The notes under the pieces are model-generated. The model was not told the origin of the DNA, did no database searches, and worked only from the letters and a program-made list of their open reading frames with translations. From NCBI GenBank assembly GCA_016840465.1, contig JAEOSH010000043.1, forward strand, positions 1 to 20,873: a stretch of DNA of 20,873 bases, given 5' to 3'. This stretch comes from Candidatus Baldrarchaeum yapensis. Its GTDB lineage: Archaea > Asgardarchaeota > Baldrarchaeia > Baldrarchaeales > Baldrarchaeaceae. Below are positions 238 through 19,000 of the stretch, in pieces. The position numbers were made by a program, and so were the translations under genes. Each line of letters begins with the position of its first letter. Positions within the stretch are counted from its first letter, which is position 1.

Positions 238-675
238 TTAAAACTCTACGAGGGCGAAAAGAGATTCTGAGGGTCTAACAACCCCATTCCTCATTTTTAT
301 GAAACCAAGCCTTTCTAAGTATTTGAGATCCTCGAGCACGGTTTTCACTTCCACGCCACGCTCCTTAGCGACTTCCTCTATTTTTGCTTCTCCCTTTCCT
401 GCACATAATTTTATGACCGCAAATAGCGTTGCCTTCACTCTATCCGGTAGGAACCCCTCACCCTCGGTAAAAGCCAGATGCCACGTTTTTGAAAGAGGAT
501 TGTACATGAGTGAGAACCCCAGGAGAGATAACATGTATGAAACCCTCTCTAACGCCTTAATCGCACAAACTTCTCCAAAATCGTCCTCACGTAGGCCTAA
601 GAGCCTTATTATCTCCCGTAGGGATATTCCTTTGCCTCCCAAAAGCCTGCTCAACAATGCCGTGACCTCATTCAA
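238..675 (-). CDS. scpB: ScpB-like KITE subunit (tandem winged helix)
   Basis: 145 aa with two WH-like halves. LPDRVKATLFAVI…IEEVAKERGV…LKYLERLGFIK matches the ScpB WH-B pattern (LS..aLETLAiI…raEIeeiRGV…L..L.erGlI). It is the last gene after SMC and kleisin and overlaps the upstream gene by 8 nt. Confidence 0.75.
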   Translation of the reverse strand: MNEVTALLSRLLGGKGISLREIIRLLGLREDDFGEVCAIKALERVSYMLSLLGFSLMYNPLSKTWHLAFTEGEGFLPDRVKATLFAVIKLCAGKGEAKIEEVAKERGVEVKTVLEDLKYLERLGFIKMRNGVVRPSESLFALVEF

Positions 676-1234
676 TCATGATCACCTCGTTTTTGTCTTC
701 AGATAGCGATAGTCTCCCCGAAGATATCAATCTGAGGAGTGCAACGAATGCCATCAGCGTGGACCATCGATCTCCCATTTTAACCACATTTTCTACGCTC
801 GCCCTCCCTCCTTGCTCCGTTAAAAGCGAAAGTACCAGTCTAGACGCTCTTTTCAAGATATCCTCAAACCTTACGATACTTATCTCGACGTGTGGAGCCT
901 CAGAGCCTAACTCTATATGCTCGGTGAGCTCTTCTGCTTCTAAGCACCTCCTCTTCTCCGATAGCGATTTTAATCTCTCGAATGCTCTTCTGAGATCGTC
1001 GATTCCAATAAAGGGGAACATCAATGGAACTCCGGCTATTTTGATCTCTGGTTGTTCTCCCTCAAGGTTCATTAGTATGAGGTTTGCTATTTCGCGGATC
1101 TCCCTCTCGATAAGATCCAAAATTCTTGCAATTATCCTTAATGCTTCCCTTAGATCCATATTGTCGATCTCGGCAAGCACCTTTGAAATTAGCAAATTTA
1201 CGTCGCCACCGCTGCCCATCATAAGGGTCACCAT
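668..1234 (-). CDS. scpA: ScpA-like kleisin (short); likely start ATG 1222
   Basis: DVNLLISKVLAEIDNMDLREALRIIARIL resembles the ScpA N-terminal helical region, IGIDDLRRAF resembles the 'vTLdeLi.AL' motif, and C-terminal FVALLRLISSGRLSL resembles the kleisin cap WH (FLALLeL…G.v.l). It lies directly after SMC, with GGTGA 6 nt before ATG 1222. Confidence 0.75.
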   Translation of the reverse strand: MVTLMMGSGGDVNLLISKVLAEIDNMDLREALRIIARILDLIEREIREIANLILMNLEGEQPEIKIAGVPLMFPFIGIDDLRRAFERLKSLSEKRRCLEAEELTEHIELGSEAPHVEISIVRFEDILKRASRLVLSLLTEQGGRASVENVVKMGDRWSTLMAFVALLRLISSGRLSLSEDKNEVIMIE

Positions 1235-4200
1235 TCCAGCTCTATTATCCTGCTAACGCCGCGGTCTTTCTGCAACACCACTCCGTAAATCTTATCGGCG
1301 AACAATCCGATGTCGGCGTGCTTATCCGGCACAAATACCAGCACCTGCCTTCCCTTTGAATTCTTACTGAGAATTTTCGCCGCAACGGTGCTATGCCTGA
1401 TGTCTAAGAAGATGACCGGCTCGTCGTAGGCAAATATGCGGCTGTGCGATCTCCTCTGAAGTGCACATATGAACGCTATTGCTATGATTGTCTGTTGACC
1501 CTTACTGAAGGTCTTGATGGCACGTTCAACGCCATCGCCTGTTTTTGCCCTCATCACCAAGCCCAGTTCCTCGAAGCTACCATCCAATGTGGCGCTGCAC
1601 CGTATGTCGATGTTGTTCTCCTCAAGCACGCTATTAACTTCCCTGATAATTGAATCCACCTCCTTCCTCAACTCCTCCAAGTACTTATCTTTCAACTTCT
1701 CCATGAGTTGGCTGACGGCACTTATTTTCCTCTCTACCTCGTTTATTCGCCTAGAAATTTCCTTTCGACTCTCCTGTAGCTGCTTTACCCTGTCCAGCAC
1801 ACTCTCATCGACTTCTCCCAGTTCTTCCAGTTCCTGCAATACCACCTCCTTGCGCGCCCTTATTTCTGCGATAGAGCGCACCTTCGAAGGGCGTTCGACT
1901 CCCATAATTTTAACCGAACTGTAGAGATTACCGAGTTCCTCCTCGATACGCCTAATCTCTTCCTCCAACGTCTCCATCTTCCTACTCACGTCCTGATATC
2001 TCTCATCGAATCTGCCCAACTCCTCACGAAGTTTCTCCTTGCGCTCTTTCAGTTTCGATATCTCCCTATCCACGCCCTCGATACTCGATTTGATTTCTTT
2101 TTTCTTCCCCTCCAGCAGTTCGACATTCTTCAGGCTTTTTCTCAAGTCGGCATCTGCCCTTTCCAACTCTTCCTCCAATTCGACCTTCACTGATGCCTTC
2201 TCGTTAATTCTGGTATCAATGCCTACGAGCATTTTCTCCAACTCTGTTATCAGATTTTTGCCCCTCTCAACCATCCTGTCCACTTTTTTCAACTCTCTAT
2301 CGTTCCTCTTCAACCCTTTCTCTATAGCGTCCAGCATGCCAATGAGTTTATCGTAATCTGCCGGTTTCCGCCCCTCTATTTCCTTTAACCCTGCGAGCGC
2401 CTCGTCAACTCTCCTCTTATACTCTTCTAACTCTTTCTTCAACCGCGATACTCTCTCCTTAGCATTTTCTATCTCCTCACGCAGACGAAGCTTGCGCTCG
2501 TGGAGTTCTCTCCATTTCGGGATCAGGTTGAGCAACTCTCTTATTCTTTCCAACTCTCTCCCATATCGCTCTACGTCATCCGATAATTGCTTACGCTTCT
2601 CCTCCAAGGTCTTCCGCCTATCTTCCAACTCTTCGAGCATCGCTTGGAGCCTTTTAACGCTGAGGAGACCGCGAGGTTCCCGCCTTGCCACCATTTTAAT
2701 GACGTAATTACGCCCCTCCACAACTTCGCCGTCCAGCGTGACGAATCTATAGTTGTACTTTCGGGAGAGTCTTATTGCACTATCTAGGTCTCTCACAACC
2801 ACAACTCTGCCGCAGATATCCCTTATCACGGGTCTCAGTTCCTCGGGAAACGTTATCAGGTCTTCGAGCCATCCCACGACTCCCTCCTCCCTTAGCTCCT
2901 CCTTCTCCTCAACCCGCTCGACCTTGGGCATGTAGATCGATACTCCGCGTGCGCGGTACTTCCTTCTTCTGAGGTCGTTTAAGATGTCGTTTTGTATCTC
3001 TTTTAATATCTTGAGGTCCATCTCGTCAAATACCACGAACGATAAGAGATCCCCGCCAAATATTATTTCGACGACCTCCGCGTACTCGTCCGGGACCTCC
3101 ATGTGCTTCATCAGCGGCCCCATAGCGTTAATGCCCCTTCTCTCAACTTCCTTTTCCAGCCTTGTGACCTCCTCCGGTATGCGTTTATCTCTGCTCAGAA
3201 GCTTCGCCCTCAACTCCCTAATCTCCCCGTCAAGGTTCGCCAGTTCCTTGGTGATCCTCCCCAGTTCTCCGATCAGTTCGCCCCTCTTCCTTTCGAGATC
3301 CTCCATTCTCCTCCTCAATTCTTCCTCGTTGTAATGCTCAATCTCCTCTCCAATTTCCTGAATCTCCTTGTTAACCTTCGCAAGTTCCTCATGTAGATCC
3401 CTGAGCCTGTCCATTTCGGCATCAACTTCTTTTTTCTTCTCCTCGAACGCCCTTCTCTCCGAATTATACAGTTCTCTTGCCTTAGACCATTCTCCTTCCC
3501 ACTCACGATAGTCCTTGAGTTTGTTCTCGACCTCCCTCTTCCTCTCATGTAGTTTCTCGATCTTCTGCTCGATCCTTGCTCTTCTATGTTTCAGTTCTGT
3601 GACCCTTTTCTCAACATTTCTGATGCATCCCTCGAGGACCCTTTTCTCTCGATCAAGTCTCTCCATCTCCGCTCTCAGGCGTTCAATCTTACCTATTATC
3701 TTGTCGTACTCCTTACGCTTCTCCTCGATCTTCATATTTTCGGCAGCAATTTCACCTTCCACCTTTCTCAGCACTTCCTCGAGCGACTTCTTCTTTTTCT
3801 CCAATTCCTCGATCCGTTTTCTGGTTTCAGAGATCATTGCGTTGATCCTCTCGATCTCATGGGCTAGATCTCCGCATTTCCCCTTCAATTCTTCCATTTT
3901 TCTTCTGCGTTCTGCAAGTTCTCGCTCCCTTTCAGATATCTCCGCCCATAGTTCCTCCGCTTCCAGTTTTTTAAGTTCCTCCTCCAGCTTTCTCTTTCTC
4001 TCCAATTTTTTGATCTGCGGACGTAGGTTCATCTCCTCCGAGTTGAGGGCCCTTAATTCCTCCTCCAGCAGTTTCTTTCTCTCCGACAGTTCCCTAATTT
4101 TATCAAGTTTATCTAGGATTTCCCTCCGATGCCCCGCAAGTCCTGTGATTTCCTCCACTGCCTCCCTCAGAGCAATGGGGTCGAGATCCTTGATCGCATC

Positions 4201-4605
4201 TATCTTCCCTTGAGGGCAGAATACGAACGGGTTGCCGGGGTCGGTCTCCAGTTCCCTGACTATCCTTCTGACGCTCTCGGCAGTTGTGAGTTTGCCGTTG
4301 ACGAAGTACTGTGGGGGCCTTCCCCTTACGACCCTTCTCCTAATGGTAATTGATTCCTGTCCATTGCTGAGCACCACCTCGACCCATGCCTCATTACAGC
4401 CGTGCCTGATGAAGTCCGACCAGCGCGGATACCTCTCATCCTTTTGGTTCGATCCCAAGACGAACCTTAGCGCCTGGAAGAGCGCGGTCTTCCCGGATCC
4501 GTTTTCCCCAACGAAAACTAAGAGTCCATCTTCGAGGTTTATCTCCTCATGTGCGTACGAGAGAAAATTATGGAGCGTTAACTTTACGATCCGCACCCCC
4601 TCCAC
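1228..4605 (-). CDS. smc: SMC-family ATPase with hinge; atypical head (start GTG 4605 or 4596)
   Basis: 1125 aa. Walker A GENGSGKT (aa 33-40), Q-loop FCPQGKI, two long coiled coils around an SMC hinge (GPLMKHMEV…FVTLDGEVVE), signature-like FSKGQ, Walker B IFAYDE and D-loop FLD. Confidence 0.95.
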   Translation of the reverse strand: MEGVRIVKLTLHNFLSYAHEEINLEDGLLVFVGENGSGKTALFQALRFVLGSNQKDERYPRWSDFIRHGCNEAWVEVVLSNGQESITIRRRVVRGRPPQYFVNGKLTTAESVRRIVRELETDPGNPFVFCPQGKIDAIKDLDPIALREAVEEITGLAGHRREILDKLDKIRELSERKKLLEEELRALNSEEMNLRPQIKKLERKRKLEEELKKLEAEELWAEISERERELAERRRKMEELKGKCGDLAHEIERINAMISETRKRIEELEKKKKSLEEVLRKVEGEIAAENMKIEEKRKEYDKIIGKIERLRAEMERLDREKRVLEGCIRNVEKRVTELKHRRARIEQKIEKLHERKREVENKLKDYREWEGEWSKARELYNSERRAFEEKKKEVDAEMDRLRDLHEELAKVNKEIQEIGEEIEHYNEEELRRRMEDLERKRGELIGELGRITKELANLDGEIRELRAKLLSRDKRIPEEVTRLEKEVERRGINAMGPLMKHMEVPDEYAEVVEIIFGGDLLSFVVFDEMDLKILKEIQNDILNDLRRRKYRARGVSIYMPKVERVEEKEELREEGVVGWLEDLITFPEELRPVIRDICGRVVVVRDLDSAIRLSRKYNYRFVTLDGEVVEGRNYVIKMVARREPRGLLSVKRLQAMLEELEDRRKTLEEKRKQLSDDVERYGRELERIRELLNLIPKWRELHERKLRLREEIENAKERVSRLKKELEEYKRRVDEALAGLKEIEGRKPADYDKLIGMLDAIEKGLKRNDRELKKVDRMVERGKNLITELEKMLVGIDTRINEKASVKVELEEELERADADLRKSLKNVELLEGKKKEIKSSIEGVDREISKLKERKEKLREELGRFDERYQDVSRKMETLEEEIRRIEEELGNLYSSVKIMGVERPSKVRSIAEIRARKEVVLQELEELGEVDESVLDRVKQLQESRKEISRRINEVERKISAVSQLMEKLKDKYLEELRKEVDSIIREVNSVLEENNIDIRCSATLDGSFEELGLVMRAKTGDGVERAIKTFSKGQQTIIAIAFICALQRRSHSRIFAYDEPVIFLDIRHSTVAAKILSKNSKGRQVLVFVPDKHADIGLFADKIYGVVLQKDRGVSRIIELEW

Positions 4606-5515
4606 CCCCTACCATGCTCCTTATCCTCTCAACAGCCTTCTTCGCTCTCATCAACCTGATGATCCTCCTCTCACGATCATCTAGCAGTATAAACGAGCAC
4701 TTAGCGAGAAGGATTTCCAGTTTCCTATCGAGGGGTTGCCCGATGTTGATCTTACGTATTAGCTTCTCGAACTCCTGCCCGTACTCGCTGATTGCCATCA
4801 TGTACATTTGATCCAGCATGTCGTCGGGAACCACGCTCTCCACAACCTTAGGCGCTGGCGGAAAGATTATCCTCTCGAGACAAAAGATAAAGTCCTCCGT
4901 CTTAACAACGTCCCTGTTGTTGCCGAACGCATAAGAAACCGCCATCTTGACGAGATTTATCAGGTCCGTCGCATAGAGTCCCTCCGTCATCTCTATTATC
5001 TTTCTCAGGTCGATATCGTACTTTACACCGTCGAGTAATACCCTCAGCGCCTCCCCCCTCTCACTTGGCCCCGGTTCATGCACTCTTAATACGAACTCGT
5101 TTATTGTTAGCGGGTTTTCCAATGGCGGGCTCAGCACCACTATTAAAAACTTCCCGTCGAAGGCCCTATTCTTAAGGAGATCCATCACGTGATCACAACT
5201 TGCCCACGTTAAAAGCACGACTTCCCTGAACTTAGAAGGTTCCATATGCTCGTTGGCCGATATTTCTGTTATATCTATGTTCATTTCGTTCAATACTGAT
5301 TTTATCGCTAAATCTATCATCGATCTGGGATCCGCATAAAGGATGACCCTAGATACCGGTTCCACTCTCAGGTTTTCCGTGAAAAACGTGCGGTTCCTCC
5401 ATGCAGTTATCAGAGCCTTCAATGCCTCTACTGTGTCCCTGCAACAGATGTTTGCGACGGCCTTGACCTTCTCCTCCCACGTGGCAACCCTTTTCTCTTT
5501 CTCACTCTCCGCCAT
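4568..5515 (-). CDS. Inactive classic-clade (PAN/Cdc48/FtsH-like) AAA+ domain protein with C-terminal helical extension
   Basis: LRVEPVSRVILYADPRSMIDLAIKSVLNEMN aligns to '[28 protein letters not shown]' with the P-loop destroyed. No hhhhDE Walker B (VVLLTW instead). EPGPSERGEALRVLL…DIDLRKIIEMTEGLYATDLINLVKMA…DVVKTEDFIFCLERI is a recognisable AAA lid. Confidence 0.7.
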   Translation of the reverse strand: MAESEKEKRVATWEEKVKAVANICCRDTVEALKALITAWRNRTFFTENLRVEPVSRVILYADPRSMIDLAIKSVLNEMNIDITEISANEHMEPSKFREVVLLTWASCDHVMDLLKNRAFDGKFLIVVLSPPLENPLTINEFVLRVHEPGPSERGEALRVLLDGVKYDIDLRKIIEMTEGLYATDLINLVKMAVSYAFGNNRDVVKTEDFIFCLERIIFPPAPKVVESVVPDDMLDQMYMMAISEYGQEFEKLIRKINIGQPLDRKLEILLAKCSFILLDDRERRIIRLMRAKKAVERIRSMVGGGGGADRKVNAP

Positions 5516-7283
5516 AGTATCCTCTCACCTCCTCTATGACCATCTTGGGGAGATCGTTTGCATCCTGCACGGGATAGATTTTTCCTCCCATTTGGAAGAA
5601 CGTTTTGAACTTTTTGCTCTGCAGATCCTCCTCCCTGCCGCCTATCAAGAACAGTACTATCTTGTGCCCCATTGACGCGATCTCCATTAGGCCCCTTAAT
5701 GCCTGCTTCCAGTTGTAGATCTCCGCATCGCTTATTATCAGAACCAACACCTGATCCCTCGCCTTTTGCACCAGCTCAATCAACTCCTCTATCGGAAGTT
5801 CCGTTCCTCCGCCCTGGTACGTCAGTAAGCAGTCCTCCACTTTCTTCCTGTCTCTGGTCCACTCACAAGTTATGGGCTCGTCCGAGAAGTTCAGCACCGC
5901 CATCCTGCAGTTTTTCCTCATTGCAAAATCCAAGGCAGCGAATGCGGACACTAGTGCCGCATCATACGGTCCCGATGGTCCGGCCGGGTTCCATAATTCC
6001 CAGAACATGCTACCTGAGCTATCTATCACTATAAGGAGGTCGGGAGGGGCACTTTTCTCACCATGCCTTTCGCTTTTCCTTTTTACCCATTTTCTGGTGG
6101 TAATGTTCGGAATGAGAACCGGGAATGTTTGAAGAGATTGCACGATGTCCAACTCCTCTATTGGGTCGCCGATACGCCACACCGTGGTGTATGCGGGCAA
6201 TGCGCTTCCCTCTCTTTTAACCCGCATTTTTATTTCGATCTTTGAGGCCGCTCTTGCGCGATACCAGAACCTTAAGAGGTCATGCCCCCTCAACATCGGA
6301 GACAGACCCAGTGAGGCAGAGGCGAACTTTCCAAAGTCTTGCCCTCGCTCTACAAACCGCCTCGCTATTTTTTCAAGGTCCTCCTCTGATAGTTCGCCCT
6401 TCCCCTCAGCGGCCTCCTTATCACGTATCTCCATGGGGTTTCCACGCATCAGGATAATAACATCTTTAGGAACTTCTGCAGGTGATCTTTCTTCTTCGGC
6501 ATCGGGCTTAGTGGCCATGGGGGACCCTGTTGACGACCCTCCGCAACCTGTGAGCATGGGTGCCGGCACTCCTAAACAGATGCCCTCACGGACTTCCTCC
6601 ATCAGCACGTCTCTTAGTATCTGTGCGACCCTGCGAGTCCTCTCGGGCCACGAGTTCTCGTCATCTATTCCATCCCTGACGGCATTTGCAAGTTCTCGCG
6701 CTATTCTGTCCTCCCTTTTTCCAATGTCTAGGCGAATCGGAAATCTAACACCCCACAGGTATTCATAGGTTCGGACGAGTATTTTGAATAGGGCACTCGG
6801 AGATCCGGTTACTCTAACCGCCTCTCTTATTATCACCTCGAGTGACCACAGCGTGTCATCCCGGAACATCTTAAACAGTTTTGTTTCGACCACGAGATCG
6901 GCAAACACGTTTACTGCGAAAACCGCGCGCATTGGGTCGAGTACAGATGCCGCCTCGGCGACCATGAACGAGGAATTAATTCTATCATATGGACAGTAGA
7001 TGTAATGTCCGATTTCATGCCTTGCCATACATCTGAAAAACCTGAGGAGCTCCGTTTCTCCAAGCTGGGGATGTCGAGCAACGTTCATATGAACCCGCCA
7101 ATCCTCCTCGCTTATGTAGAAGCCCGATGTTTTCATCTCGTCATATTCTATTTCCGGCTCGGGGATCGGTGGGTTGAGGAAGTCCGCGAGCGCGAGGTTA
7201 TACCCCTCCCTTGCGATATGCATAACTCTCTCCGGCGGAATCCCCCTCCCTCTGCGGAAGATTTTACCTAGCGCTTTCTCCAT
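5502..7283 (-). CDS. Zincin-like metallopeptidase (HExxH) fused to a VWA domain (MoxR partner, DUF2201-like architecture)
   Basis: HEIGH at aa 89-93 (7005-7019) followed by NVFADLVV. The C-terminal VWA has a complete MIDAS: LLIVIDSSGSM, GGGT, IISD. GGTGA RBS, 4 nt after the MoxR stop. Confidence 0.85.
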   Translation of the reverse strand: MEKALGKIFRRGRGIPPERVMHIAREGYNLALADFLNPPIPEPEIEYDEMKTSGFYISEEDWRVHMNVARHPQLGETELLRFFRCMARHEIGHYIYCPYDRINSSFMVAEAASVLDPMRAVFAVNVFADLVVETKLFKMFRDDTLWSLEVIIREAVRVTGSPSALFKILVRTYEYLWGVRFPIRLDIGKREDRIARELANAVRDGIDDENSWPERTRRVAQILRDVLMEEVREGICLGVPAPMLTGCGGSSTGSPMATKPDAEEERSPAEVPKDVIILMRGNPMEIRDKEAAEGKGELSEEDLEKIARRFVERGQDFGKFASASLGLSPMLRGHDLLRFWYRARAASKIEIKMRVKREGSALPAYTTVWRIGDPIEELDIVQSLQTFPVLIPNITTRKWVKRKSERHGEKSAPPDLLIVIDSSGSMFWELWNPAGPSGPYDAALVSAFAALDFAMRKNCRMAVLNFSDEPITCEWTRDRKKVEDCLLTYQGGGTELPIEELIELVQKARDQVLVLIISDAEIYNWKQALRGLMEIASMGHKIVLFLIGGREEDLQSKKFKTFFQMGGKIYPVQDANDLPKMVIEEVRGYYGGE

Positions 7284-7287
7284 GTGA

Positions 7288-8997
7288 TCACCCCGTCAGT
7301 ATCTTCAGGAGTTTTTCGGCATCAGGGCCCGATATCTCGAGATACACGGGGTCATCATCCTCGGTTCCCGTGACGCTGACGGAGATCGTCACCCATGGAG
7401 TCCTGACAAAGCAGTATCCGATTCTTTCGAATAATGGTTTCAGCGATTCGTAGATTCTCCTATCCGGCACTTTGGCGATTATCTTCGGTCCTAAGTTCCT
7501 CCACTCCTTGAATGTTATCCGCACCATCTCGCATGTTAGTTTGTGTATTTGCCGATCCACTCTATCCAGGAGCCTCTCCCTGTAGGGTATATCCACGTCA
7601 CTGCTGAGTTTCTCCCTTATTTTTGCGAGGTCGCTCACCTTACCTGCTGTTATCGCCTTCTCTATCTCCGTAACGAACTTCCTGTACTTAGGAGAGTTTA
7701 GTTGCTTCACCAGCGGTAAAATGTCCACCTTGACAACGATGTCGCTACGCGCCCACAGTTCGAGTTTCTGAATGTCTTCTTTCGTCCCCGTCCCGCGCTC
7801 AAACTTTTCTAGGATGTCATATGCTTCCATCCGCGCGATGAACCGGTCCTTCACCAACTTCATAATATGTCTCGTAAACTTGAGCGGGTCCCCATAAAAT
7901 GGATGCTCGCGGAGGTTCTTATCGGAATACTGCACACGATGCCATACTACAAATGGTGCAATCGCCTCCACAACCTCTATCGTCACCCTATCCAAGTTTA
8001 GAAGCCATGCCAATGCTTTCGCATATCTGCTGATGTCCTTCGCTGCTCTTACGCTCAATGGAGTCAGTATCTTGTTACAGGGACATTTATCCGTGTTGAA
8101 GTGGCAACCCTGACACAGCCCGGTGTCTGGTCTGAGAATTCGGGCGTTCTCCTTACTCACCCGTATGCATGCCTTGTATTCGGAAATTATGCTACTTATG
8201 AATCTGGCGGCCCTAGGGTCGAGTTCCATTCTCTCGACCATGCCCCATATCTGCATCAGTTCCTTCTCGGTCAGAATTGCGGGGATTTGGTAATATTCAT
8301 CGAAACCGTAAAGTTTCTCGTCTTGGGTTCCGAGGATCACCTGCATCTCGACAGAGGAGGGCATTGTCACGGGAACCGCGATGCCGAACCTGTCAAGGAA
8401 GGGCAACCCCATTTCAAAGGTTCCTACGTCCTGAGGGTTCAGCGTCGCGTACAGCACGAAGTTTTCGCAACGGTATACTTTGTCAAAGTACTTTACCTGT
8501 CCTTCCGCAAGCAAAGATAGGAGGATGTCTTGGGCGTATGGACTAAGTCTATTCACCTCGTCGACAATCTTCCAGAAGTCCGTAACGAATCTCCTCCACA
8601 CGACGTCCTCTACTCCCTCTTTTAGTAACTTTCCCGGCTTAAGAGTGGCGACCATCTTCTCCTCCGTTATGTACGGGTGCGCCCTTACGACCGCCTCCTC
8701 TATCTCCCTTAACGACTTTCCGGTAAGCATCCTCCCGAGAATCTTAACGAGGGTGGTTTTACCACCCCCATGTCCCCCATATAGCAGCATCGTCCCACGG
8801 GGGACCAGCGCGTTAATGACCGCGAGTGTGAGGATTAATGGCAATCGCTTGACGGAGTATCGGCCGCTTCGGCCGGACGGAACCTTCACTTCTAGGCGTT
8901 CGCCGTGAACAAATAGTCTATGCACTTCAACCGTGTTTATTACTTCCCAGACCTTTCGCCTGAGGCTGTCCTCGGAGGCGCGGGGCAACCCGCACAC
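7288..8997 (-). CDS. MoxR-like (helix-2-insert clade) AAA+ ATPase with N- and C-terminal extensions
   Basis: Walker A GGHGGGKTT, Walker B KIVDEVNR, sensor I ATLNP, Arg finger FLDRF, sensor II LSVRAAK, and lid end APFVVWHRV. Adjacent to a VWA gene, as is typical for MoxR. Confidence 0.9.
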   Translation of the reverse strand: MCGLPRASEDSLRRKVWEVINTVEVHRLFVHGERLEVKVPSGRSGRYSVKRLPLILTLAVINALVPRGTMLLYGGHGGGKTTLVKILGRMLTGKSLREIEEAVVRAHPYITEEKMVATLKPGKLLKEGVEDVVWRRFVTDFWKIVDEVNRLSPYAQDILLSLLAEGQVKYFDKVYRCENFVLYATLNPQDVGTFEMGLPFLDRFGIAVPVTMPSSVEMQVILGTQDEKLYGFDEYYQIPAILTEKELMQIWGMVERMELDPRAARFISSIISEYKACIRVSKENARILRPDTGLCQGCHFNTDKCPCNKILTPLSVRAAKDISRYAKALAWLLNLDRVTIEVVEAIAPFVVWHRVQYSDKNLREHPFYGDPLKFTRHIMKLVKDRFIARMEAYDILEKFERGTGTKEDIQKLELWARSDIVVKVDILPLVKQLNSPKYRKFVTEIEKAITAGKVSDLAKIREKLSSDVDIPYRERLLDRVDRQIHKLTCEMVRITFKEWRNLGPKIIAKVPDRRIYESLKPLFERIGYCFVRTPWVTISVSVTGTEDDDPVYLEISGPDAEKLLKILTG

Positions 8998-9044: not shown

Positions 9045-9054
9045 TTTTAAATAA
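9045..9054 (-). promoter_or_regulatory. Candidate TATA box for the MoxR-VWA-SMC operon
   Basis: TTATTTAAAA on the minus strand about 50 nt upstream of GTG 8997. Confidence 0.5.
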
Positions 9055-9232: not shown

Positions 9233-9811
9233 TCACCGACCCTCCGGTATCATACCATTCGCCCTTAATTCCTCATACACTCTTCTCAAAAGTTCTCGAA
9301 TCTTCCGGCGCTTCTTCATGCCTCCCATCATCTGTGCAACCTTTCTGATGCTCCCTATTACCGAGATCATCTCGAGTATACGTCTTTCCTGTTTTGTCAG
9401 TTCCAGATGCTCCAGTGCAAGCCTCGCGATGTAGTCCACCGGAATCTTGCCATAGTATAGGCTCTCGGGGTCTATCCCCTCCCCGTACTTCTCGATCACG
9501 TCGAACTCTATTATCGTGACGTTAGACTCCGGCGATACGTTGCCGTAGTGGTACTTCAGGCTCTCTATGAGCTCGTCCCTGCTCTTGAACCCGTCCTTGT
9601 GCGCGTCCTCATCGGTGAGATCCTTCACCTTCTTGTGTTCAACTCTCCTTACCCGGGCCTTCGCTATTATTTTGCCGCCACAGTGGATGAAGACCTCATC
9701 TCCCTCGCTCAGCCGGCGTATGGTTCCCAGCCTTATGGTCGTGCACTTTTTCCCCTTCAGGACCTTCTCACGGTACTGCCGCTTTAGTTCTATGTACTTC
9801 ATCCCCAGCAC
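9233..9811 (-). CDS. ASCH (PUA-like) domain protein with C-terminal HTH-like region; likely start ATG 9802
   Basis: KVLKGKKCTTIRLG…GDEVFI…LTDEDAHKDGF is the ASCH GxKxxTxR pattern. The tail LTKQERRILEMISVIGSIRKVAQMMG is HTH-like. Confidence 0.85.
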   Translation of the reverse strand: MLGMKYIELKRQYREKVLKGKKCTTIRLGTIRRLSEGDEVFIHCGGKIIAKARVRRVEHKKVKDLTDEDAHKDGFKSRDELIESLKYHYGNVSPESNVTIIEFDVIEKYGEGIDPESLYYGKIPVDYIARLALEHLELTKQERRILEMISVIGSIRKVAQMMGGMKKRRKIRELLRRVYEELRANGMIPEGR

Positions 9812-9981
9812 CGTGGCTTATGTTGTCCTGAAAATCAGGGTACGGATACCTAATAAGTGTACCACTGAGTGAAGGATTTGCGAATCTATTTCTGTAGTAT
9901 CGGAGTCAGTTTAGCGGCGTTATGAGCAAAACTAAAGGGGAATTGCTAGCTATTGCTTAATGCAATAAGTGGCAAGAGTAG

Positions 9982-10389
9982 TTATCGAGTTGTTTGACCG
10001 ATTTCTAACTCTATGAGCTTTAATCCGTATCTTTTAAGCCGTTCAAAATGCTTCTTATTTCTTGCCCAGAGAAACGCGCCCCTCTGGATGGCCGTAGCGG
10101 CAATTATGGCGTCACGTGGATCCAGGGCCTCCCCCCGGTTCATCAGATCGGCCTCTATTTTTGCCGCGCAGTCGGCGGCCTCTATTGATATCGGCAAAAC
10201 CCCGAAGTATTTCTTGAGCAGATTCTTAAGGTAGCCTTGATCGGTCTTATACGCTCCCGTCATAAATTCGAAGTAAACCACAGCGCAGATCTTCAGATCG
10301 TACTTTTCCATGAGGCTAATAATTTTCTTAGGGTCGCCCTTCTCCAGCAGATCTATCAGCACGTCCGTATCTAGATGTACCTCGTTCAT
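9982..10389 (-). CDS. vapC: PIN-domain (VapC-family) toxin
   Basis: VHLDTDVLID, YFEFMTG, DPRDAIIAATA and RNKKHFER. Acidic PIN residues are present, though the usual 'T.D/N' position reads ARN. Confidence 0.9.
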   Translation of the reverse strand: MNEVHLDTDVLIDLLEKGDPKKIISLMEKYDLKICAVVYFEFMTGAYKTDQGYLKNLLKKYFGVLPISIEAADCAAKIEADLMNRGEALDPRDAIIAATAIQRGAFLWARNKKHFERLKRYGLKLIELEIGQTTR

Positions 10390-10613
10390 TTCATCCTCCT
10401 CATCTGCTCTACTACTTTACGTATTTCCTCCAGACAACCCTCCGCTCGTACCTTCTCCAGATCAGAAATCAACTCCAGAGCCTTCATTCTCCTCCAGTGG
10501 TTTAACAGGAACTCTATCACCTCATTGAAACTCTGAAGTCCAAGTTCATTTTTCAGATTCTCCAGCCTCTCGAGAAGCGCTCTGTGCAGAGTGATCGTTG
10601 TGTATTCCCTCAT
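10386..10613 (-). CDS. vapB: VapB-family RHH-type antitoxin
   Basis: 75 aa. YTTITLHRALLERLENLKNELGLQSFNEVIEFLL is the archaeal RHH antitoxin pattern, and it has an ATGA overlap with the PIN gene. Confidence 0.85.
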   Translation of the reverse strand: MREYTTITLHRALLERLENLKNELGLQSFNEVIEFLLNHWRRMKALELISDLEKVRAEGCLEEIRKVVEQMRRMK

Positions 10614-10770
10614 TCCGATCCGCCCCTATGAAATAGCATTTTCCAATATATCATATCAAGTATACATTAATGCATGAATACATTGTCATGAAATTTTGTT
10701 GCAGGGGCCCACGAATTAAATTGTACCAAGGTGCAATTGCATTATGGTGAGGATCTCAGAGGGATAGTAG

Positions 10771-11910
10771 ATGAAAATACTAGTTCTCGGTTGTGGGAAT
10801 ATAGGATCCGCGATTGTAATGGATCTTACGAGGTCGATACCAAGTGCGGAAGTTGCGGTTGCCGATAACGATCTGAGGAAAATCACTCGATTAGCTAATC
10901 GATTGAAGGGGAAAATCCGACATGTACTCATTGATGCATCGAATCAGGAGAAACTTACACGGCTGTTTTCGAAATTTGATGTGGTGGTCGGTGCACTCCC
11001 TGGGAGATTGGGGTTTAATGCAATGCATGCTGCCATAAACGCGGGAACAAATATGGTGGACGTGTCATATACGCCGGAAAATCCTCTATTGTTGAATGAA
11101 GATGCTTTAAACGCGGGAGTCACAATAGTGCCGGACTGCGGTTTTGCGCCGGGATTAACAAATCTGATAGTCGGATTCTGCAGCTGCATATTCGACCAAA
11201 TCGATACTGTGAAGATCTTCGTTGGGGGATTGCCTCAAAGGCCCGTACCTCCCCTCGGATATGTTATTACATGGTCAGTGGAGGACCTGATAGAGGAGTA
11301 TACGAGGGACGCGAGGATAATAGTGGACGGCGAGATAGTAAGGGTCAGGGCTTTAGATGGAATAGAAACCGTGGAAATTCCACATGTAGGTACCCTCGAG
11401 GCGTTTTACACGGATGGGCTGCGCACTCTCCTTTACACGATGAGAAACGTGAGAAACATGTACGAGAAGACATTAAGATTCCCGGGACACGCTGAGAAGA
11501 TAAAACTGCTGAGAGATCTCGGGTTCTTCGATGATGACAAAGTAGAGGTTGAAGGGGTGGAGATACCCATCAACGTCTTCACCGCGAGGGTTTTAGAGAG
11601 GAGGTTGAGGGTGTCCGAGGTCAGGGACATGGTTGTAATGAGGGTTGAGGTTCTGGGGTACCATCAAGGAACGAAGAGAGTCATGATCTTCGACCTAGTG
11701 GATCGATTTGATGAGCGAGAGGAGATCACGGCGATGGCACGTGTCACGGGATACATGGCATCGACGGTTACGAAGATTCTGGCATCCGGGGAAATAAAAC
11801 AAAAGGGAATTGTTCCACCCGAAATTCTTGGGAGGGATACGGCAATATTTAAGAAAATTATAGAGGATCTCGGAAAGAGGAGAATTGTCATAAGAATCTC
11901 GGAAAAATAA
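10771..11910 (+). CDS. Saccharopine dehydrogenase / L-lysine 6-dehydrogenase family oxidoreductase
   Basis: Rossmann KILVLGCGNIG, DCGFAPGLTN, VGGLPQRP..PLGY.ITWS…LIEEY, LEAFYTDGLRTL, TLRFPGH and MARVTGY. Confidence 0.88.
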   Translation: MKILVLGCGNIGSAIVMDLTRSIPSAEVAVADNDLRKITRLANRLKGKIRHVLIDASNQEKLTRLFSKFDVVVGALPGRLGFNAMHAAINAGTNMVDVSYTPENPLLLNEDALNAGVTIVPDCGFAPGLTNLIVGFCSCIFDQIDTVKIFVGGLPQRPVPPLGYVITWSVEDLIEEYTRDARIIVDGEIVRVRALDGIETVEIPHVGTLEAFYTDGLRTLLYTMRNVRNMYEKTLRFPGHAEKIKLLRDLGFFDDDKVEVEGVEIPINVFTARVLERRLRVSEVRDMVVMRVEVLGYHQGTKRVMIFDLVDRFDEREEITAMARVTGYMASTVTKILASGEIKQKGIVPPEILGRDTAIFKKIIEDLGKRRIVIRISEK

Positions 11911-11976
11911 GAATCATAATAAGAGTGATGGCATCGTTCGCCAAGAACAATTTTGGCGGTCCCGCAAAGGGCATGC

Positions 11977-11984
11977 TTTTATAT
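11977..11984 (+). promoter_or_regulatory. Candidate TATA box for PaREP1 gene 1
   Basis: TTTTATAT about 30 nt before ATG 12014, consistent with a short or leaderless mRNA. Confidence 0.45.
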
Positions 11985-12013
11985 TTTCCTTTTGCATATA
12001 ACGGGGATAAACC

Positions 12014-12481
12014 ATGCGTAGGATTGAGGTTTCCGAGGGAATTTATGAGATCCTTTTGGAAATCGCCAGAATAAGGGGCAAAAGTATAGAAGAGATCATT
12101 GTTGAATCCGTTATTGAAGACCTAGATCCCAGAACAAGGATCGAGGTATACTTAAAACTCCATGAGAAGTTTCTGCGAGAGGCGGAGGATTTCTACGCCA
12201 AGGGCGATCTTGTACAGGCTGGTGAGAAGTACTGGGGCGCTGCAACGGCCCTCATCAATGCAATTGGTGAGAAAAGGGGATGGAAACATTACAGCCACAG
12301 GGACTATGCCGAAATTATAGAAAGATTATCCGAGGAGTTAAAAGAACCGCTGGGAAGGCTCTTTGCAAGCGTTGAGAGATTACACGCGAATTATTACCAT
12401 AATTTCCTGACAAAAACGAACTTCGAAGCGCATAGGGAGGATGCGCTTAAACTCATCACGAAACTCAAAGAACTCGTATGA
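12014..12481 (+). CDS. PaREP1-family (HEPN-like) protein with N-terminal RHH-like segment
   Basis: FLREAEDFYAKGDLVQAGEKYWGAA…KHYSHRDY…ERLHANYYH is the PaREP1 pattern (QA.EK.w.A…LH.nfY). Confidence 0.88.
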   Translation: MRRIEVSEGIYEILLEIARIRGKSIEEIIVESVIEDLDPRTRIEVYLKLHEKFLREAEDFYAKGDLVQAGEKYWGAATALINAIGEKRGWKHYSHRDYAEIIERLSEELKEPLGRLFASVERLHANYYHNFLTKTNFEAHREDALKLITKLKELV

Positions 12482-12569
12482 TGCCTTAAAGATATTACCG
12501 GAGATCCCATCGTGGCAATCTTATTCGCAAAATAAAAGAAAAATTGAGAAGAACTTGGTATAGTTCGTC

Positions 12570-13568
12570 TTATAAAATGGATGGCCTGGTGCGGGCCATT
12601 CTCGAAGCCATTTCCTCCAGTGTATCTTTCTCCTTTGTCCTGACGGGCGCCACGAAAAGGTAATAGAGGCTTTCTCTCCGGCAGAGGGCAATTCCGTAAA
12701 GGTTTCCGTCTTTGCTTCTGAACCTTATGGCGTCACCGGCACCTCTTTTCTTCGTCTCTATGATCTCGAAGTCCATTTCACCGAAATCAGGGACTTTCAC
12801 ATCGTATTTCTCCTTCTTCTTAAATCTGAGAGCGTCGAGGGCAAAAGTTCTCGCAACCTTCTCTGCAACTCTTTCCCAAGCCCTAGGTGAGCCGTAGAGC
12901 TCCAGTGCCATGAACTCCCCGTTTATGAAGATGGCGGCACCAACCTGCCCCTCGACGCTCTTGAAGTTCCTAACGTATTCATCGACTTCATCGCTCTTTC
13001 GCTCGAACACGGCGGTTAGATCTGCAGTTGAGCTAGACACATCATATGATACAAGATAAGCACTTGCCATCGACCACACAGATCTCTGGGGAAGGAACTT
13101 TTCTTTGAGAGCAAGAGTCCTTAATAGCCGTGGCGCCGTATATTCCTTAGCGACCTTCATTTTCAATTCTCCTGAACCTCTGGAGATAGGGTGCCACCTT
13201 CCTGCCTCTATGCAGCGAACCTCTACGGTCATGGTAATGGGCTCTTCTTGGGTTGCGGGTATCAGGAAGGGCTCAAAGATCAGGCGGTTCTGGAGCCCCG
13301 CCTTTAGATTAACGAACGCGGGTATTAGGACATCAACATTTGCATTACTCGTTACGCTTACGGCCTCAACGCGAGCGCTAGGAAGCTCCTCCACCTTTAC
13401 TAGGCCCTGTTCCTCTGCATCGTCTATCAGGATAAATTCTGGCTCGTGCAACGCTCCCTTGGAGATTATCGGAATAATGGTGAGGTTCTTGTACGTTTGC
13501 GGCTCTCCGAACTCGTAAAACTCACCAAAGTTGTTTAAAATACTTTTGAGTACGGATACCTCCTGCAT
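12570..13568 (-). CDS. ARPP-1 / DUF6569-like protein
   Basis: GEPQTYKNLTIIPI, LKAGLQNR, VRCIEAGRWH, QRSVW and GQVGAAIFINGEFMALELYGSP match the family pattern (G.kQNR, sCVE.GRW, Q..VW). GGAGG RBS. Confidence 0.75.
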   Translation of the reverse strand: MQEVSVLKSILNNFGEFYEFGEPQTYKNLTIIPIISKGALHEPEFILIDDAEEQGLVKVEELPSARVEAVSVTSNANVDVLIPAFVNLKAGLQNRLIFEPFLIPATQEEPITMTVEVRCIEAGRWHPISRGSGELKMKVAKEYTAPRLLRTLALKEKFLPQRSVWSMASAYLVSYDVSSSTADLTAVFERKSDEVDEYVRNFKSVEGQVGAAIFINGEFMALELYGSPRAWERVAEKVARTFALDALRFKKKEKYDVKVPDFGEMDFEIIETKKRGAGDAIRFRSKDGNLYGIALCRRESLYYLFVAPVRTKEKDTLEEMASRMARTRPSIL

Positions 13569-13670
13569 TGCCCCATCCTCCCATTTTGCAACTACTTTCG
13601 TTATAGGAGAATGAGATGAAGTATTTAATATTTGAGTTTCGGGAAGTAATGATCCCGCCCGTATCTTCGT

Positions 13671-14234
13671 TTACGCTTGTTGCTTTGCCTCCATGTGGGC
13701 ACGTTCCTTTAATATCCCTAGGAGTTCTTTCACGTATTTCAGTCGCGCCCTGACCTGCTCCGGTTTAAGTCTCGCCTCATGGAATCCCTCGACGTGTAGG
13801 AAGTATGCATGGTCCCAGTCGTCGTATATTCTCTCATTAATTTTTTCACTTAGCTTCCTCGCGGCGGCATCGAGTAAAGACAATGTCCATCTTCCTCGCT
13901 CTTTAGCTTTATTTGCTTCTTCGAGTTTCTCGGCTACTGCGAGGGCCTTAATGGCTTCTTCAGCCACCTTATACAGCTTTTCACATGCCTGAACGGTGTC
14001 TTTATCGACGAGTTTCTCGCCCTCTTCGAGGTACTTTTCGGCGAGTTCGGCTCTGGCTCTGACCTCATCCGTGGGATCCATGTTGAGTTCATGTATGAGT
14101 ACATCGATTAGTTTGGCTTCTACGTCGACGCCTAGGTCTCTGAGACGTCTAGCAACGGTTTCGGGTAGCCTGATAACGACTTTATAGATCATATTCATCA
14201 CGAATGTTTTTTCGTCCGACACGTTACTTACCAT
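13671..14234 (-). CDS. PaREP1-family (HEPN-like) protein; likely start ATG 14192 or 14198
   Basis: AEKYLEEGEKLVDKDTVQACEKLYKVAEEAIKALA…GRWTLSLL…WDHAYFLHVEGFHEARL is a typical PaREP1 C-terminus. Confidence 0.88.
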   Translation of the reverse strand: MVSNVSDEKTFVMNMIYKVVIRLPETVARRLRDLGVDVEAKLIDVLIHELNMDPTDEVRARAELAEKYLEEGEKLVDKDTVQACEKLYKVAEEAIKALAVAEKLEEANKAKERGRWTLSLLDAAARKLSEKINERIYDDWDHAYFLHVEGFHEARLKPEQVRARLKYVKELLGILKERAHMEAKQQA

Positions 14235-14521
14235 GATGCAGCTTGCCCTATTTGATTTTTCGTTATTGCCGAACGTGAAATTAGGCGAGTTGATATAGTG
14301 TGCCGATGCTATATTATCTCAAGATTGGAAGATGGTAAAAGATGCTACTCTTTTCTTTTCAGGCGTATCTCGTGGGCGTTTAAACGATAACAGGAAAAAT
14401 TCTGCAGTTGGTTTTTCCGGCAGTATTGATAGTTTAAGTGACACTTCGCTTACGCCGAACATTAAATATAACTAGCCGAAAAGTCAAAGTAAGAAATACG
14501 TCTAAGTGCTGAAATTGCCGA

Positions 14522-14934
14522 TTGGTGTTAACCGTGCGCGCCGTAAAGGAGGTCAGGATAAGATTCAAAGGAAGAGAGACAGCATGCACGGCGCTTTTTG
14601 ACAGCGGACCCGGCATTACGGCAATTCAGCGTAATTTCTTCGAGAAGCACTTCGGGTCGGAATGGTCAACTCTTGACAGACCGCTGGTTCTTTTCTGGAT
14701 TAATGGGAATCCATAAGGGTTGACAAGTACGCCTCTCTCATAATAGTCATAGATGAAGTTGCAATCCCCGAGGTCGTTTTCGTAGTGGACAAGTTCGTCG
14801 GAGAAGTCGAGGTGGAAGGCAGGAAGATCAAGTTACCCGAAGTGATAATAGGATCCGGGACTATGGACAAGTATGGCATAGTTTTGGATCCAAAGGAGGG
14901 CGTTAGAATCACCGGTGCTGGACTTTTGCTCTAA
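14522..14934 (+). pseudogene. Retropepsin-like aspartyl protease with one frameshift
   Basis: Frame 1 has ALFDSG and stops at 14714-14716. The -1 frame from the GGG at 14705-14707 reads ESIRVDKY…EVIIGSGTMDKYGIVLDPKEG…LLL* to 14934. One added base gives a 137-aa protein with both retropepsin motifs. Confidence 0.8.
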
Positions 14935-15072
14935 GGGATTATCGAAGGTTGTTTGAGTACTAATATTGTTAGAAGTGAGGTTTTTGGTGAGAATCTGCTA
15001 CTTTAGTGACCATTTAGGGGATTATAAAAAATGTTGGGTGATTATGAAGTGGAAGTCCTAAGGGCCCAGCGT

Positions 15073-15678
15073 TTAAGTTTCGGGGACTAAGGAGGCCGTT
15101 GCAAAAACGCTTCCCGCAACTATTGCGAAAGGCGCTCCCAGTGGCGCTATCACTTTCGGCACATCAAATGCCACGTCTATGCAAAGAGCATACACTTTTC
15201 CTCTCTCAAGGGCTCCCGCCGCCTCTACGAGTATGTGAATGGTTAATGCCTGCCTGCAGGTTGCAACTACGGTTCCGTCCTCCAAGTGTACCGTTATATT
15301 TCTGCACACCAGGAGAATATGCTTTATCTCCGCTCCGGCGGGCAAGTATATGTTCCCCGCCACTTGAACGTAGGAGCCGTTTGCGTAAAGCTTAACCGTG
15401 ATTCCTATTCCTGTCTCGGTAACGGTTTCGTTTCCAGCACCCGCCAGTACGATCTTGTCTATTGTCATGCTGACGTACTCGTAATTTATTTCGAAGGGCG
15501 GCGTGAAGTTTCGTCTGGGCGGCGGATCCGCGATGTAGATGTTCAGCAGGGCAGAGTTGCTCACGTACGCACCAACTTTATGTACCTGTTGTAATACTGG
15601 TTCTGATATTTCTGGAACAGTAAATACTACAATTGCAACTACCAACAGCAATATGACGATAGCTACCGCCTTCTTCAA
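15073..15678 (-). CDS. Secreted or membrane-anchored beta-rich glycoprotein, DUF4382-like; likely start TTG 15678
   Basis: (M)KKAVAIVILLLVVAIVVF is a signal/anchor. LNIYIADPP resembles the DUF4382 'l.v.ltDaP' start. Four N-x-S/T sequons (NFT, NET, NGS, NIT). The longer 15828 start would leave only 26 bp before the divergent gene. Confidence 0.6.
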   Translation of the reverse strand: MKKAVAIVILLLVVAIVVFTVPEISEPVLQQVHKVGAYVSNSALLNIYIADPPPRRNFTPPFEINYEYVSMTIDKIVLAGAGNETVTETGIGITVKLYANGSYVQVAGNIYLPAGAEIKHILLVCRNITVHLEDGTVVATCRQALTIHILVEAAGALERGKVYALCIDVAFDVPKVIAPLGAPFAIVAGSVFATASLVPET

Positions 15679-15854
15679 CTTAAACACCGATTCTATATTC
15701 AGAGTACCGCAATATAAGCGTTTTTTACGGAAAATGTTGTTCCGAGAAGTGGATAATACCCCGTTGTTGGTATTGATATGCAAATACAGCACTATCATTG
15801 CGCAACCACTTAAATACGTATGAGACATTATCTCTCGGAAGTAGGGTGTAACGG

Positions 15855-18988: not shown

Positions 18989-19000
18989 ATCTATGCCTCC

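Follow-up and report, generated by a model that had tools for sequence, protein, structure and literature searches.

A probable second SMC complex of Asgard archaea, encoded with a pseudo-AAA protein and linked to a MoxR–VWA gene pair

Introduction

In the stretch of the Candidatus Baldrarchaeum yapensis genome analysed here (contig JAEOSH010000043.1; hereafter the window, meaning the whole 20,873 nt, on which all nucleotide positions are numbered), six genes, g1 to g6, follow one another on the minus strand. The reading that we on balance favour is that they specify a second, non-canonical archaeal SMC complex with a four-protein core, g3–g6, for which g1 and g2 act as a MoxR–VWA remodeller. 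This core would bring together a dead classic-AAA protein (g3), an SMC protein (g4), a kleisin of small size (g5) and a kite with tandem winged helices (g6), and in this genome it is joined in one operon with the motor g1 and its VWA partner g2. The four genes g3–g6 form a constant unit wherever they occur in Asgard archaea, the SMC belongs to a paralogue group separate from the canonical Smc, and the pair g1–g2 neighbours the unit in two different arrangements.

In all forms of life, chromosomes are organised by SMC complexes, and no known organisms are more closely related to eukaryotes than the Asgard archaea. Eukaryotic SMC5/6 has been suggested to descend from an archaeal ‘SMC5/6-related’ complex, which has so far been known as a trio of SMC, kleisin and kite. 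The recurrent pairing described here is probably the sign of a hitherto undescribed regulator that acts on an SMC ring of Asgard archaea, and the pseudo-AAA protein together with the linked MoxR–VWA–HExxH pair supplies concrete, purifiable candidates for loading, unloading or turnover factors. If the reading is right, this would be the first MoxR–VWA system acting on a DNA-organising machine. Reconstitution should be feasible, because the components occur in the cultured strain MK-D1 and in thermophile-like metagenome-assembled genomes (MAGs) with compact proteins.

Organization of the six-gene operon

The six open reading frames are co-oriented and lie head to tail between positions 238 and 8997, g1 being the first and g6 the last (Table 1). 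This layout had been recognised in an earlier sequence-only reading of the window, and its coordinates and all junction lengths were exactly reproduced: a 4-nt gap separates g1 from g2, and the following junctions, to g5/g6, are overlaps of 14, 38, 7 and 8 nt, of which that between g3 and g4 shrinks from 38 to 29 nt if g4 begins at the GTG at 4596. Purine tracts of the GGTGA/GAGG type stand upstream of g1, g2, g3 and g6, which bears out the ribosome-binding sites that the same reading had placed at most starts, and its upstream TATA box corresponds to the A/T box TTATTTAAAA at 9045–9054, as read from the sequence the sole such box within the 236-nt intergenic region preceding g1. The gene identities that it had assigned were right as well: domain searches and motif inspection gave AAA_5 with AAA_lid_2 in g1, VWA with HExxH in g2, no P-loop in g3, SMC_N with SMC_hinge in g4 and a winged helix–turn–helix in g6.

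Beyond g6 the next gene, read from an overlapping contig of the same assembly (C89), is convergent, and the operon therefore terminates at g6. Judged from this layout, co-transcription of all six genes is plausible. The same genes are linked in dozens of further genomes, so that the cluster is no chance arrangement.

Table 1. Features of the window discussed in the text
Feature	Position	Strand	Description
g1	7288–8997	minus	569 amino acids (aa), MoxR/midasin-class AAA+
g2	5502–7283	minus	593 aa, HExxH domain and C-terminal MIDAS-VWA
g3	4568–5515	minus	315 aa, pseudo-AAA, classic AAA clade
g4	1228–4605	minus	1125 aa, SMC with hinge
g5	668–1234	minus	188 aa, candidate kleisin
g6	238–675	minus	145 aa, tandem winged-helix kite
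TATA-like A/T box TTATTTAAAA	9045–9054	minus	48–57 nt upstream of g1 start; candidate operon promoter
ABC-type ATPase	in 18539–20095	minus	364 aa; AAA_15/AAA_21; PADLOC AbiLi 5e-36, PDC-M38A, AriA
DUF3226/OLD-like Toprim protein	in 18539–20095, after ATPase	minus	149 aa; PDC-M38B 3e-8

A second SMC paralogue with its candidate kleisin and kite

The product of g4 has the architecture of the SMC family, a split ABC head, coiled coil and hinge: Pfam SMC_N covers residues 6–1113 and both termini (102 bits), SMC_hinge covers residues 495–613 (51.8 bits), and Walker A, the Q-loop and the Walker B DE are present. It is nevertheless not the canonical Smc, as it scores 276 bits against the Smc equivalog TIGR02169, far under the cut-off of 729, whereas the canonical Smc proteins of related genomes reach 804–913 bits. 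By similarity, g4 groups with corresponding window-type SMCs of Jordarchaeia, Thorarchaeia, Lokiarchaeia and family f9, apart from both the canonical and the long SMCs. Since a canonical Smc and a g4 orthologue coexist in genomes of Jord-, Thor- and Lokiarchaeia, the g4 orthologues constitute a separate paralogue group; in the cultured Promethearchaeum syntrophicum MK-D1, three paralogous SMCs occur, one canonical (1200 aa), one long (1498 aa) and one of the window type (1187 aa). The SMC is not that of a standard Smc–ScpAB but a second paralogue; the sequence-only reading had suggested looking for a second, canonical Smc–ScpAB, and most related genomes do carry a canonical Smc alongside the g4 orthologue. 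When g4 was compared with sequences in the PDB, Smc3, archaeal Smc, Smc5 and Smc2 came out at much the same distance, a ranking that does not separate an affinity to SMC5/6 from one to SMC1–4 or archaeal Smc.

The source genome, a 2.27-Mb Asgard MAG that is 96% complete, presents a different picture, in that g4 is the only full-length SMC found and neither ScpA nor ScpB was detected elsewhere in it at threshold. Two members of the same order (G002, G004; 91% complete) carry a canonical Smc (847–859 bits) and lack g2 and g3. This complementary pattern, with only the non-canonical SMC in the source genome and only the canonical one in its order-mates, suggests that either SMC complex can be the sole one.

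The small gene g5 sits between the SMC and kite genes at all loci, and its position, its size, language-model features (ESM Atlas, feature score of 0.90 to clusters that contain ScpA) and a structure that weakly resembles an archaeal ScpA cluster (template-modelling score, TM, of 0.49) make it a candidate kleisin. Kleisins contact the neck of the SMC through an N-terminal helical domain and its cap through a C-terminal winged helix; for g5, an hhalign comparison with Asgard ScpA placed the C-terminal winged-helix region in register at an E-value of 0.064, which is not significant. There was no Pfam match to g5, and ScpA, Nse4 and Rad21 were not found across the members of its alignment (E ≤5).

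The kite assignment of g6 follows from its tandem winged helices and from its place adjoining the gene in the kleisin position. Its AlphaFold2 (AF2) model, with a mean predicted local distance difference test score (pLDDT) of 84, consists of two winged-helix domains, for which Foldseek returned ESCRT-II, ScpB, MukE, MAGE/Nse3 and Nse1 at E-values of 2e-4 to 2e-3, and profile comparison with hhalign makes it a remote homologue of Asgard ScpB, over 119 columns with a probability of 70% and an E-value of 4e-5. In Pfam it lies below the ScpB threshold (a marginal match at 0.2), with DUF4194 appearing in one of 10 members at E 0.18; the MAGE and Nse1 families were not found among its alignment members (E ≤5). 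Profile searches of the PDB with g5 and g6 gave nothing informative.

A pseudo-AAA gene heads the SMC unit

Directly upstream of the SMC gene at every locus seen lies g3. Its only Pfam match is AAA_lid_3, at 24.5 bits and under the cut-off, and it has no P-loop; its ESM Atlas model superimposes on the AAA module of FtsH with a TM score of 0.63 over residues 15–308. An active classic AAA protein would have GxxGxGK[ST] as its Walker A and hhhhDE as its Walker B motif, and g3 has neither. The Walker A position reads ADPRSMID in this genome and GPPGTDF in Thorarchaeia, the lysine and the Ser/Thr are substituted in 11 of 11 sequences, and the Walker B DE is substituted or deleted. The best conserved part of the protein is a C-terminal domain of approximately 90 residues without known relatives. 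The protein is a plausible docking subunit.

The sequence-only reading had assigned this ‘dead AAA’ to the MoxR–VWA module. It belongs elsewhere, as g3 instead heads a g3–g4–g5–g6 unit that stays intact where g1–g2 lie 99 kb to 1 Mb away.

Homologues of g3 number 588 in public databases, and the g3 of this genome is the most eroded member of the family. Among the 120 homologues listed, those with names are called ‘AAA family ATPase’, ‘ATP-binding protein’, ‘SpoVK/Ycf46/Vps4 family AAA+ ATPase’ or even ‘FtsH 4’, although the family is without the ATP-binding residues. The third gene found beside distant g1/g2-like pairs (L117, L118) was also considered as a relative of g3 and was discarded, as hhalign detected no similarity.

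The MoxR-class motor and its VWA partner

The motor gene g1 belongs to the MoxR class (AAA_5, helix-2 insert), with core, lid and all catalytic motifs intact. It matches Pfam AAA_5 at 40.5 bits (cut-off 22) and AAA_lid_2 at 28.5 bits (cut-off 22.7), and falls 0.3 bits short of the model for MoxR proper, AAA_3 (26.7 bits, cut-off 27); the closest solved structures are MoxR (2r44), midasin and BchI. The Walker A motif GGHGGGKT, Walker B DE, sensor-1 asparagine, the arginine of LDRF and the sensor-2 motif SVRA are kept in 12 of 12 orthologues, from which g1 is predicted to be an active AAA+ ATPase. Ahead of the lid there is a C-x2-C-H…C cluster, which is conserved among the aligned orthologues.

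Its partner g2 has two domains, a helical one at the N-terminus with an HExxH motif and, at the C-terminus, a VWA domain whose metal-ion-dependent adhesion site (MIDAS) is complete; the linker carries a conserved motif as well. In the 11 Asgard sequences aligned, both H89, E90 and H93 of the first motif and D421, S423, S425, T494 and D519 of the MIDAS are invariant. The whole AF2 model has a pLDDT of 77, and its VWA domain (residues 409–593) superimposes on solved VWA domains with a Z-score of 17.5 and a root-mean-square deviation of 2.6 over 167 residues, with NorD at Z 16.0 and the MIDAS domain of Rea1 at Z 14.2. Fold and metal site (DxSxS…T…D) thus both identify a VWA domain with a MIDAS, while the Pfam matches are weak (VWA_2 at 21 bits, below the cut-off, and the VWA-like DUF2201 at 0.013).

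The N-terminal domain of g2 is a putative zinc metallopeptidase at the level of its motif; a zincin would have the HExxH in an active-site helix, together with a third ligand. The HExxH is missing in two of the 15 aligned members of the wider family, both of them distant relatives (P0139, P0149). No peptidase family emerged from Pfam, searched with all alignment members at E ≤5, or from a PDB profile search with the N-terminal domain, and in fold searches with the whole protein, where the VWA domain took up the matches, no zincin fold was assigned to it. A complex prediction with full-length g2 and g3 scored 0.01, which counts neither for nor against a contact. The wider family of the g1–g2 pair comprises 1223 clusters in a representative library.

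Linkage and co-occurrence across Asgard archaea

All homologues of g2 and g3 are Asgard, from Thor-, Jord-, Hermod-, Hod-, Sif- and Lokiarchaeia, including the cultured P. syntrophicum MK-D1. Wherever it is present, g3–g4–g5–g6 is a constant four-gene unit, also where g1–g2 are far off. The colinear order of all six genes recurs in three genomes of the Jordarchaeia family (G010, G020, G099), which share 33–54% identity with the source genome in g1–g4 and g6 and 25% in g5; in these as in the source genome, the genes overlap or abut at the g2/g3 junction (here by 14 nt). In Thorarchaeia, g1–g2 and g3–g6 are divergently transcribed neighbours in approximately 35 loci retrieved, and in at least 43 surveyed genomes g2 lies 2.6–4.1 kb from the C-terminal domain of g3 on one contig. 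Adjacency has thus outlasted a rearrangement, as it is found in both a colinear (this genome, Jordarchaeia) and a divergent (Thorarchaeia) form. In family f31, g1–g2 lie within 7 kb of g3–g6. The Lokiarchaeia, among them MK-D1 (NZ_CP042905.2, ~3.314–3.327 Mb), have the pair adjoining, and convergent with, the canonical Smc/ScpB locus, and a small methyltransferase gene stands between g2 and ScpB.

The presence of g2 and of the g3 C-terminal domain was scored in 268 Asgard genomes of at least 85% completeness, where they were found in 160 and 163 genomes respectively. Eight families (f1, f7, f8, f9, f22, f27, f28 and f31) have both modules, 17 families have neither g2 nor the g3 domain, and g2 alone is confined to f29, f21 and f5. 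Within families the two follow each other closely (g2 and g3 domain in 51 and 49 of 58 genomes in f7, in 89 and 98 of 106 in f9, and both in 3/3 in f8 and 9/9 in f27), and the system is single-copy and near-universal in the Thor, f9 and Loki families. We regard the co-occurrence of g1–g2 with g3–g6 as suggestive rather than statistical. The sequence-only reading would have been refuted by adjacency in this genome alone, and the colinear Jordarchaeia, the divergent Thorarchaeia and the co-occurrence by family all speak otherwise.

One of the colinear Jordarchaeia genomes (G099, the MAG with JAPDJY010000061.1) is labelled ‘Thermoproteota archaeon’ at NCBI, probably in error; the genome collection used here assigns it to f8, the Jordarchaeia family.

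Relationship to known systems

A second set of SMC, kleisin and kite genes, termed ‘SMC5/6-related’, has been described in TACK and Asgard archaea (Yoshinaga & Inagaki, 2021, PMC8665677; van Hooff et al., bioRxiv 10.1101/2024.01.07.573240). In P. syntrophicum it comprises genes _495–_497, in the plus-strand order SMC, kleisin, kite, and the condensin-like set, _810–_808, is 313 genes away (bioRxiv 10.1101/2024.01.07.573240). In CP042905.2 we find the window-type operon 312 kb from an operon with the long SMC and ScpB. These two published sets fit the two operons in orientation, order and spacing, and g4–g6 are therefore most likely the archaeal ‘SMC5/6-related’ complex, an assignment by position rather than by a tree with eukaryotic SMC5/6, Nse4 and Nse1/3. 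They share with that complex a second SMC paralogue, the order SMC–kleisin–kite and, in related genomes, coexistence with a condensin-like Smc. Unlike the complex as published, the genes described here include a pseudo-AAA gene upstream of the SMC gene and a MoxR–VWA pair. Neither accessory is mentioned in PMC8665677 or bioRxiv 10.1101/2024.01.07.573240, and van Hooff et al. nowhere use ‘AAA’, ‘VWA’ or ‘MoxR’ in a relevant sense, whether in the main text or in the supplements. We found no description of these accessory genes in the searchable literature, which leaves most subscription journals outside, so that an earlier description is possible. The suggestion of the sequence-only reading that the cluster matches no described system thus stands for the accessory genes and gives way for the SMC trio, which has been partly described. 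New here are the four-gene unit g3–g6 and the linkage of g1–g2 to it in two arrangements; the SMC–kleisin–kite trio and MoxR–VWA pairs are already known as classes.

Compared with the canonical Smc–ScpAB, the unit has the same ingredients in the same gene order (an SMC with a hinge, a small candidate kleisin and a kite with tandem winged helices), and differs in that g4 falls under the Smc equivalog cut-off, g5 and g6 fall under the Pfam thresholds for ScpA and ScpB, and there is a fourth, pseudo-AAA gene. The pair g1–g2 resembles CbbQ–CbbO, NorQ–NorD, RavA–ViaA and BchI–BchD, as well as midasin/Rea1, in setting an AAA_5-type motor beside a C-terminal VWA domain with a complete MIDAS. It differs from the known pairs in the additional N-terminal HExxH domain of g2 and in the length of g1 (569 aa), with its Cys/His cluster and an uncharacterised C-terminal half. 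The client, too, would be new, being an SMC complex; to our knowledge no MoxR–VWA pair with such a client has been reported, and literature searches likewise found none.

In Wadjet (JetABCD) and Lamassu (LmuABC), too, a single operon holds both an SMC-family ATPase and accessory genes. The sequence-only reading had asked for both to be excluded by a search for defence systems and had noted the lack of a JetD-like nuclease, and on both counts the PADLOC run left the operon outside these systems. It reported no defence system, nothing for g1, g2, g3 or g5, and only generic coiled-coil/ABC matches for the SMC. There is no JetA (kleisin-like), no JetB (a DUF4194 kite) and no JetD-type Toprim nuclease, and the matches to JetC (MukB-like) are partial, confined to coiled coil and non-specific. 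LmuA, the Lamassu effector, is likewise missing, the LmuB match is partial, and g4 has a true SMC hinge, where LmuB is an SMC-like ATPase that lacks a canonical one. Neither Pfam nor PADLOC revealed a nuclease domain in any of the six genes, and the distribution of the six-gene system is vertical and housekeeping-like, unlike that of Wadjet and Lamassu.

A proposed role and its alternatives

In the characterised MoxR–VWA pairs (CbbQO, NorQD, RavA–ViaA, Mg-chelatase, Rea1), the MIDAS grips a client that the AAA+ ring then remodels. Because the SMC unit is the recurrent neighbour and phyletic partner of g1–g2, we propose that the pair remodels the SMC holocomplex. By analogy, the MIDAS of g2 would grip an acidic residue on one of the subunits of the holocomplex, and the g1 ring, driven by ATP, would pull on the gripped subunit. 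The complex would thereby be remodelled, its ring being opened, loaded, unloaded or recycled, and the invariant HExxH domain of g2 may contribute proteolysis as a further step. Gene content, the status of motifs, conserved linkage, co-occurrence and the folds of g6 and of the g2 VWA domain are directly observed; that the proteins associate, what the MIDAS binds, that g2 acts as a peptidase and what role the system has are what we infer from them. A more specific version, which we consider improbable, has the motor and the VWA–HExxH protein as an ATP-driven ring opener in which the MIDAS docks the pseudo-AAA protein or the kleisin and the protease cleaves a subunit, preferably the kleisin. Such cleavage, if it occurs, would amount to a separase-like release step invented in archaea. 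In this version the pseudo-AAA protein would be a fourth subunit peculiar to Asgard archaea, for which no equivalent has so far been recognised in eukaryotic SMC5/6.

Several observations weigh against a remodelled second SMC complex. The signature motif of g4 (residues 1033–1039) is deviant as read from its sequence, FSKGQQ in place of the SGGE[RK] of 11 orthologues, so that it retains the serine, has lysine for the first glycine and departs from S-G-G-[EQ]; the kleisin identity of g5 does not reach significance by sequence. The two modules are unlinked in f9 and in Lokiarchaeia, at distances of 99 kb (G145) and approximately 1 Mb (P. syntrophicum MK-D1), and in f9 the pair has conserved housekeeping neighbours of its own, a HAD hydrolase and a peroxiredoxin. 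Distant relatives of g1–g2 lie next to other third genes, without an SMC neighbour, and the pair is therefore not intrinsically an SMC accessory; one genome with such a distant pair has an operon of an SMC gene and genes for 229 and 193 aa, the latter two kleisin- and kite-sized, in which nothing matches the g3 profile and the two small genes match neither the g5 nor the g6 profile. Finally, the families with both modules may represent one or a few clades, and hence few independent events.

The unlinked modules, the different neighbourhood of the f9 pair and the distant relatives that join other genes also speak for an explanation that we doubt and yet take seriously, namely that g1–g2 serve generally as a MoxR–VWA pair for chaperoning or maturation whose client has nothing to do with SMC, that its adjacency is inherited synteny and that only g3–g6 form one complex. 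What inherited synteny accounts for less well is that adjacency has held in two arrangements across at least three classes, that the modules are jointly present or absent in nearly all families, that g2 and g3 overlap or abut in the source genome and Jordarchaeia, and that in Lokiarchaeia the pair lies beside the other SMC locus. Far less probable is the view that g4–g6 are simply the fast-evolving canonical Smc–ScpAB of this organism, with nothing special about the SMC. That the rest of the genome, 96% complete, yielded no canonical Smc, no ScpA and no ScpB is what one would then expect, and yet g4 orthologues coexist with canonical Smc proteins of more than 800 bits in Jord-, Thor- and Lokiarchaeia and form a similarity group of their own, the order-mates carry a canonical Smc without this system, and the gap between 276 bits and the TIGR02169 cut-off is wide; we give this view almost no credence.

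SMC-family ATPases serve in defence, and eukaryotic SMC5/6 restricts extrachromosomal DNA. The six genes might accordingly be an anti-plasmid or anti-virus system related to Wadjet or Lamassu, with the MoxR–VWA–peptidase as effector instead of a nuclease, an idea to which the weak SMC matches to the LmuB and JetC models in PADLOC and the presence in the window, 10 kb away, of an unrelated AbiL/PARIS-like ATPase–Toprim pair lend some colour. We think it very unlikely, given the PADLOC blanks for four of the genes (g1, g2, g3, g5), the missing JetA/B/D, LmuA and nuclease domain, the true SMC hinge with a kleisin–kite set, and a distribution that is single-copy, syntenic and near-universal in the Thor, f9 and Loki families rather than patchy. 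A role of the proposed SMC complex in chromosome maintenance rather than defence is likely, since the distribution is vertical and single-copy, no nuclease or PADLOC system is present, and g4 is the only SMC found in its genome. Among the roles put forward by the sequence-only reading, chromosome organisation, DNA repair or defence, a chromosomal one is thus favoured and defence, with no PADLOC system, is the least likely of the three.

Other features of the window and its assembly

The two-gene candidate defence module at 18539–20095 (Table 1) is not related to the SMC operon. Between it and the operon, the region 9233–17345 encodes an ASCH-domain protein, a PIN nuclease, a saccharopine dehydrogenase, two PaREP1-family proteins, ARPP-1 and a B12-binding radical SAM enzyme, none of which recurs beside the SMC unit in other genomes. 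Nothing in the window was matched by Rfam or tRNA scans.

The end of contig C89 (9543–9924 of the retrieved locus) overlaps positions 67–448 of the window at 95% identity, a sign either of strain heterogeneity or that the contigs join; the C-terminus of g6 differs by three residues in the C89 version. Positions 1–70 of the window are the exact reverse complement of the C89 version of the adjoining approximately 70 bases (region 1–141), and this palindromic contig end is probably an assembly artefact.

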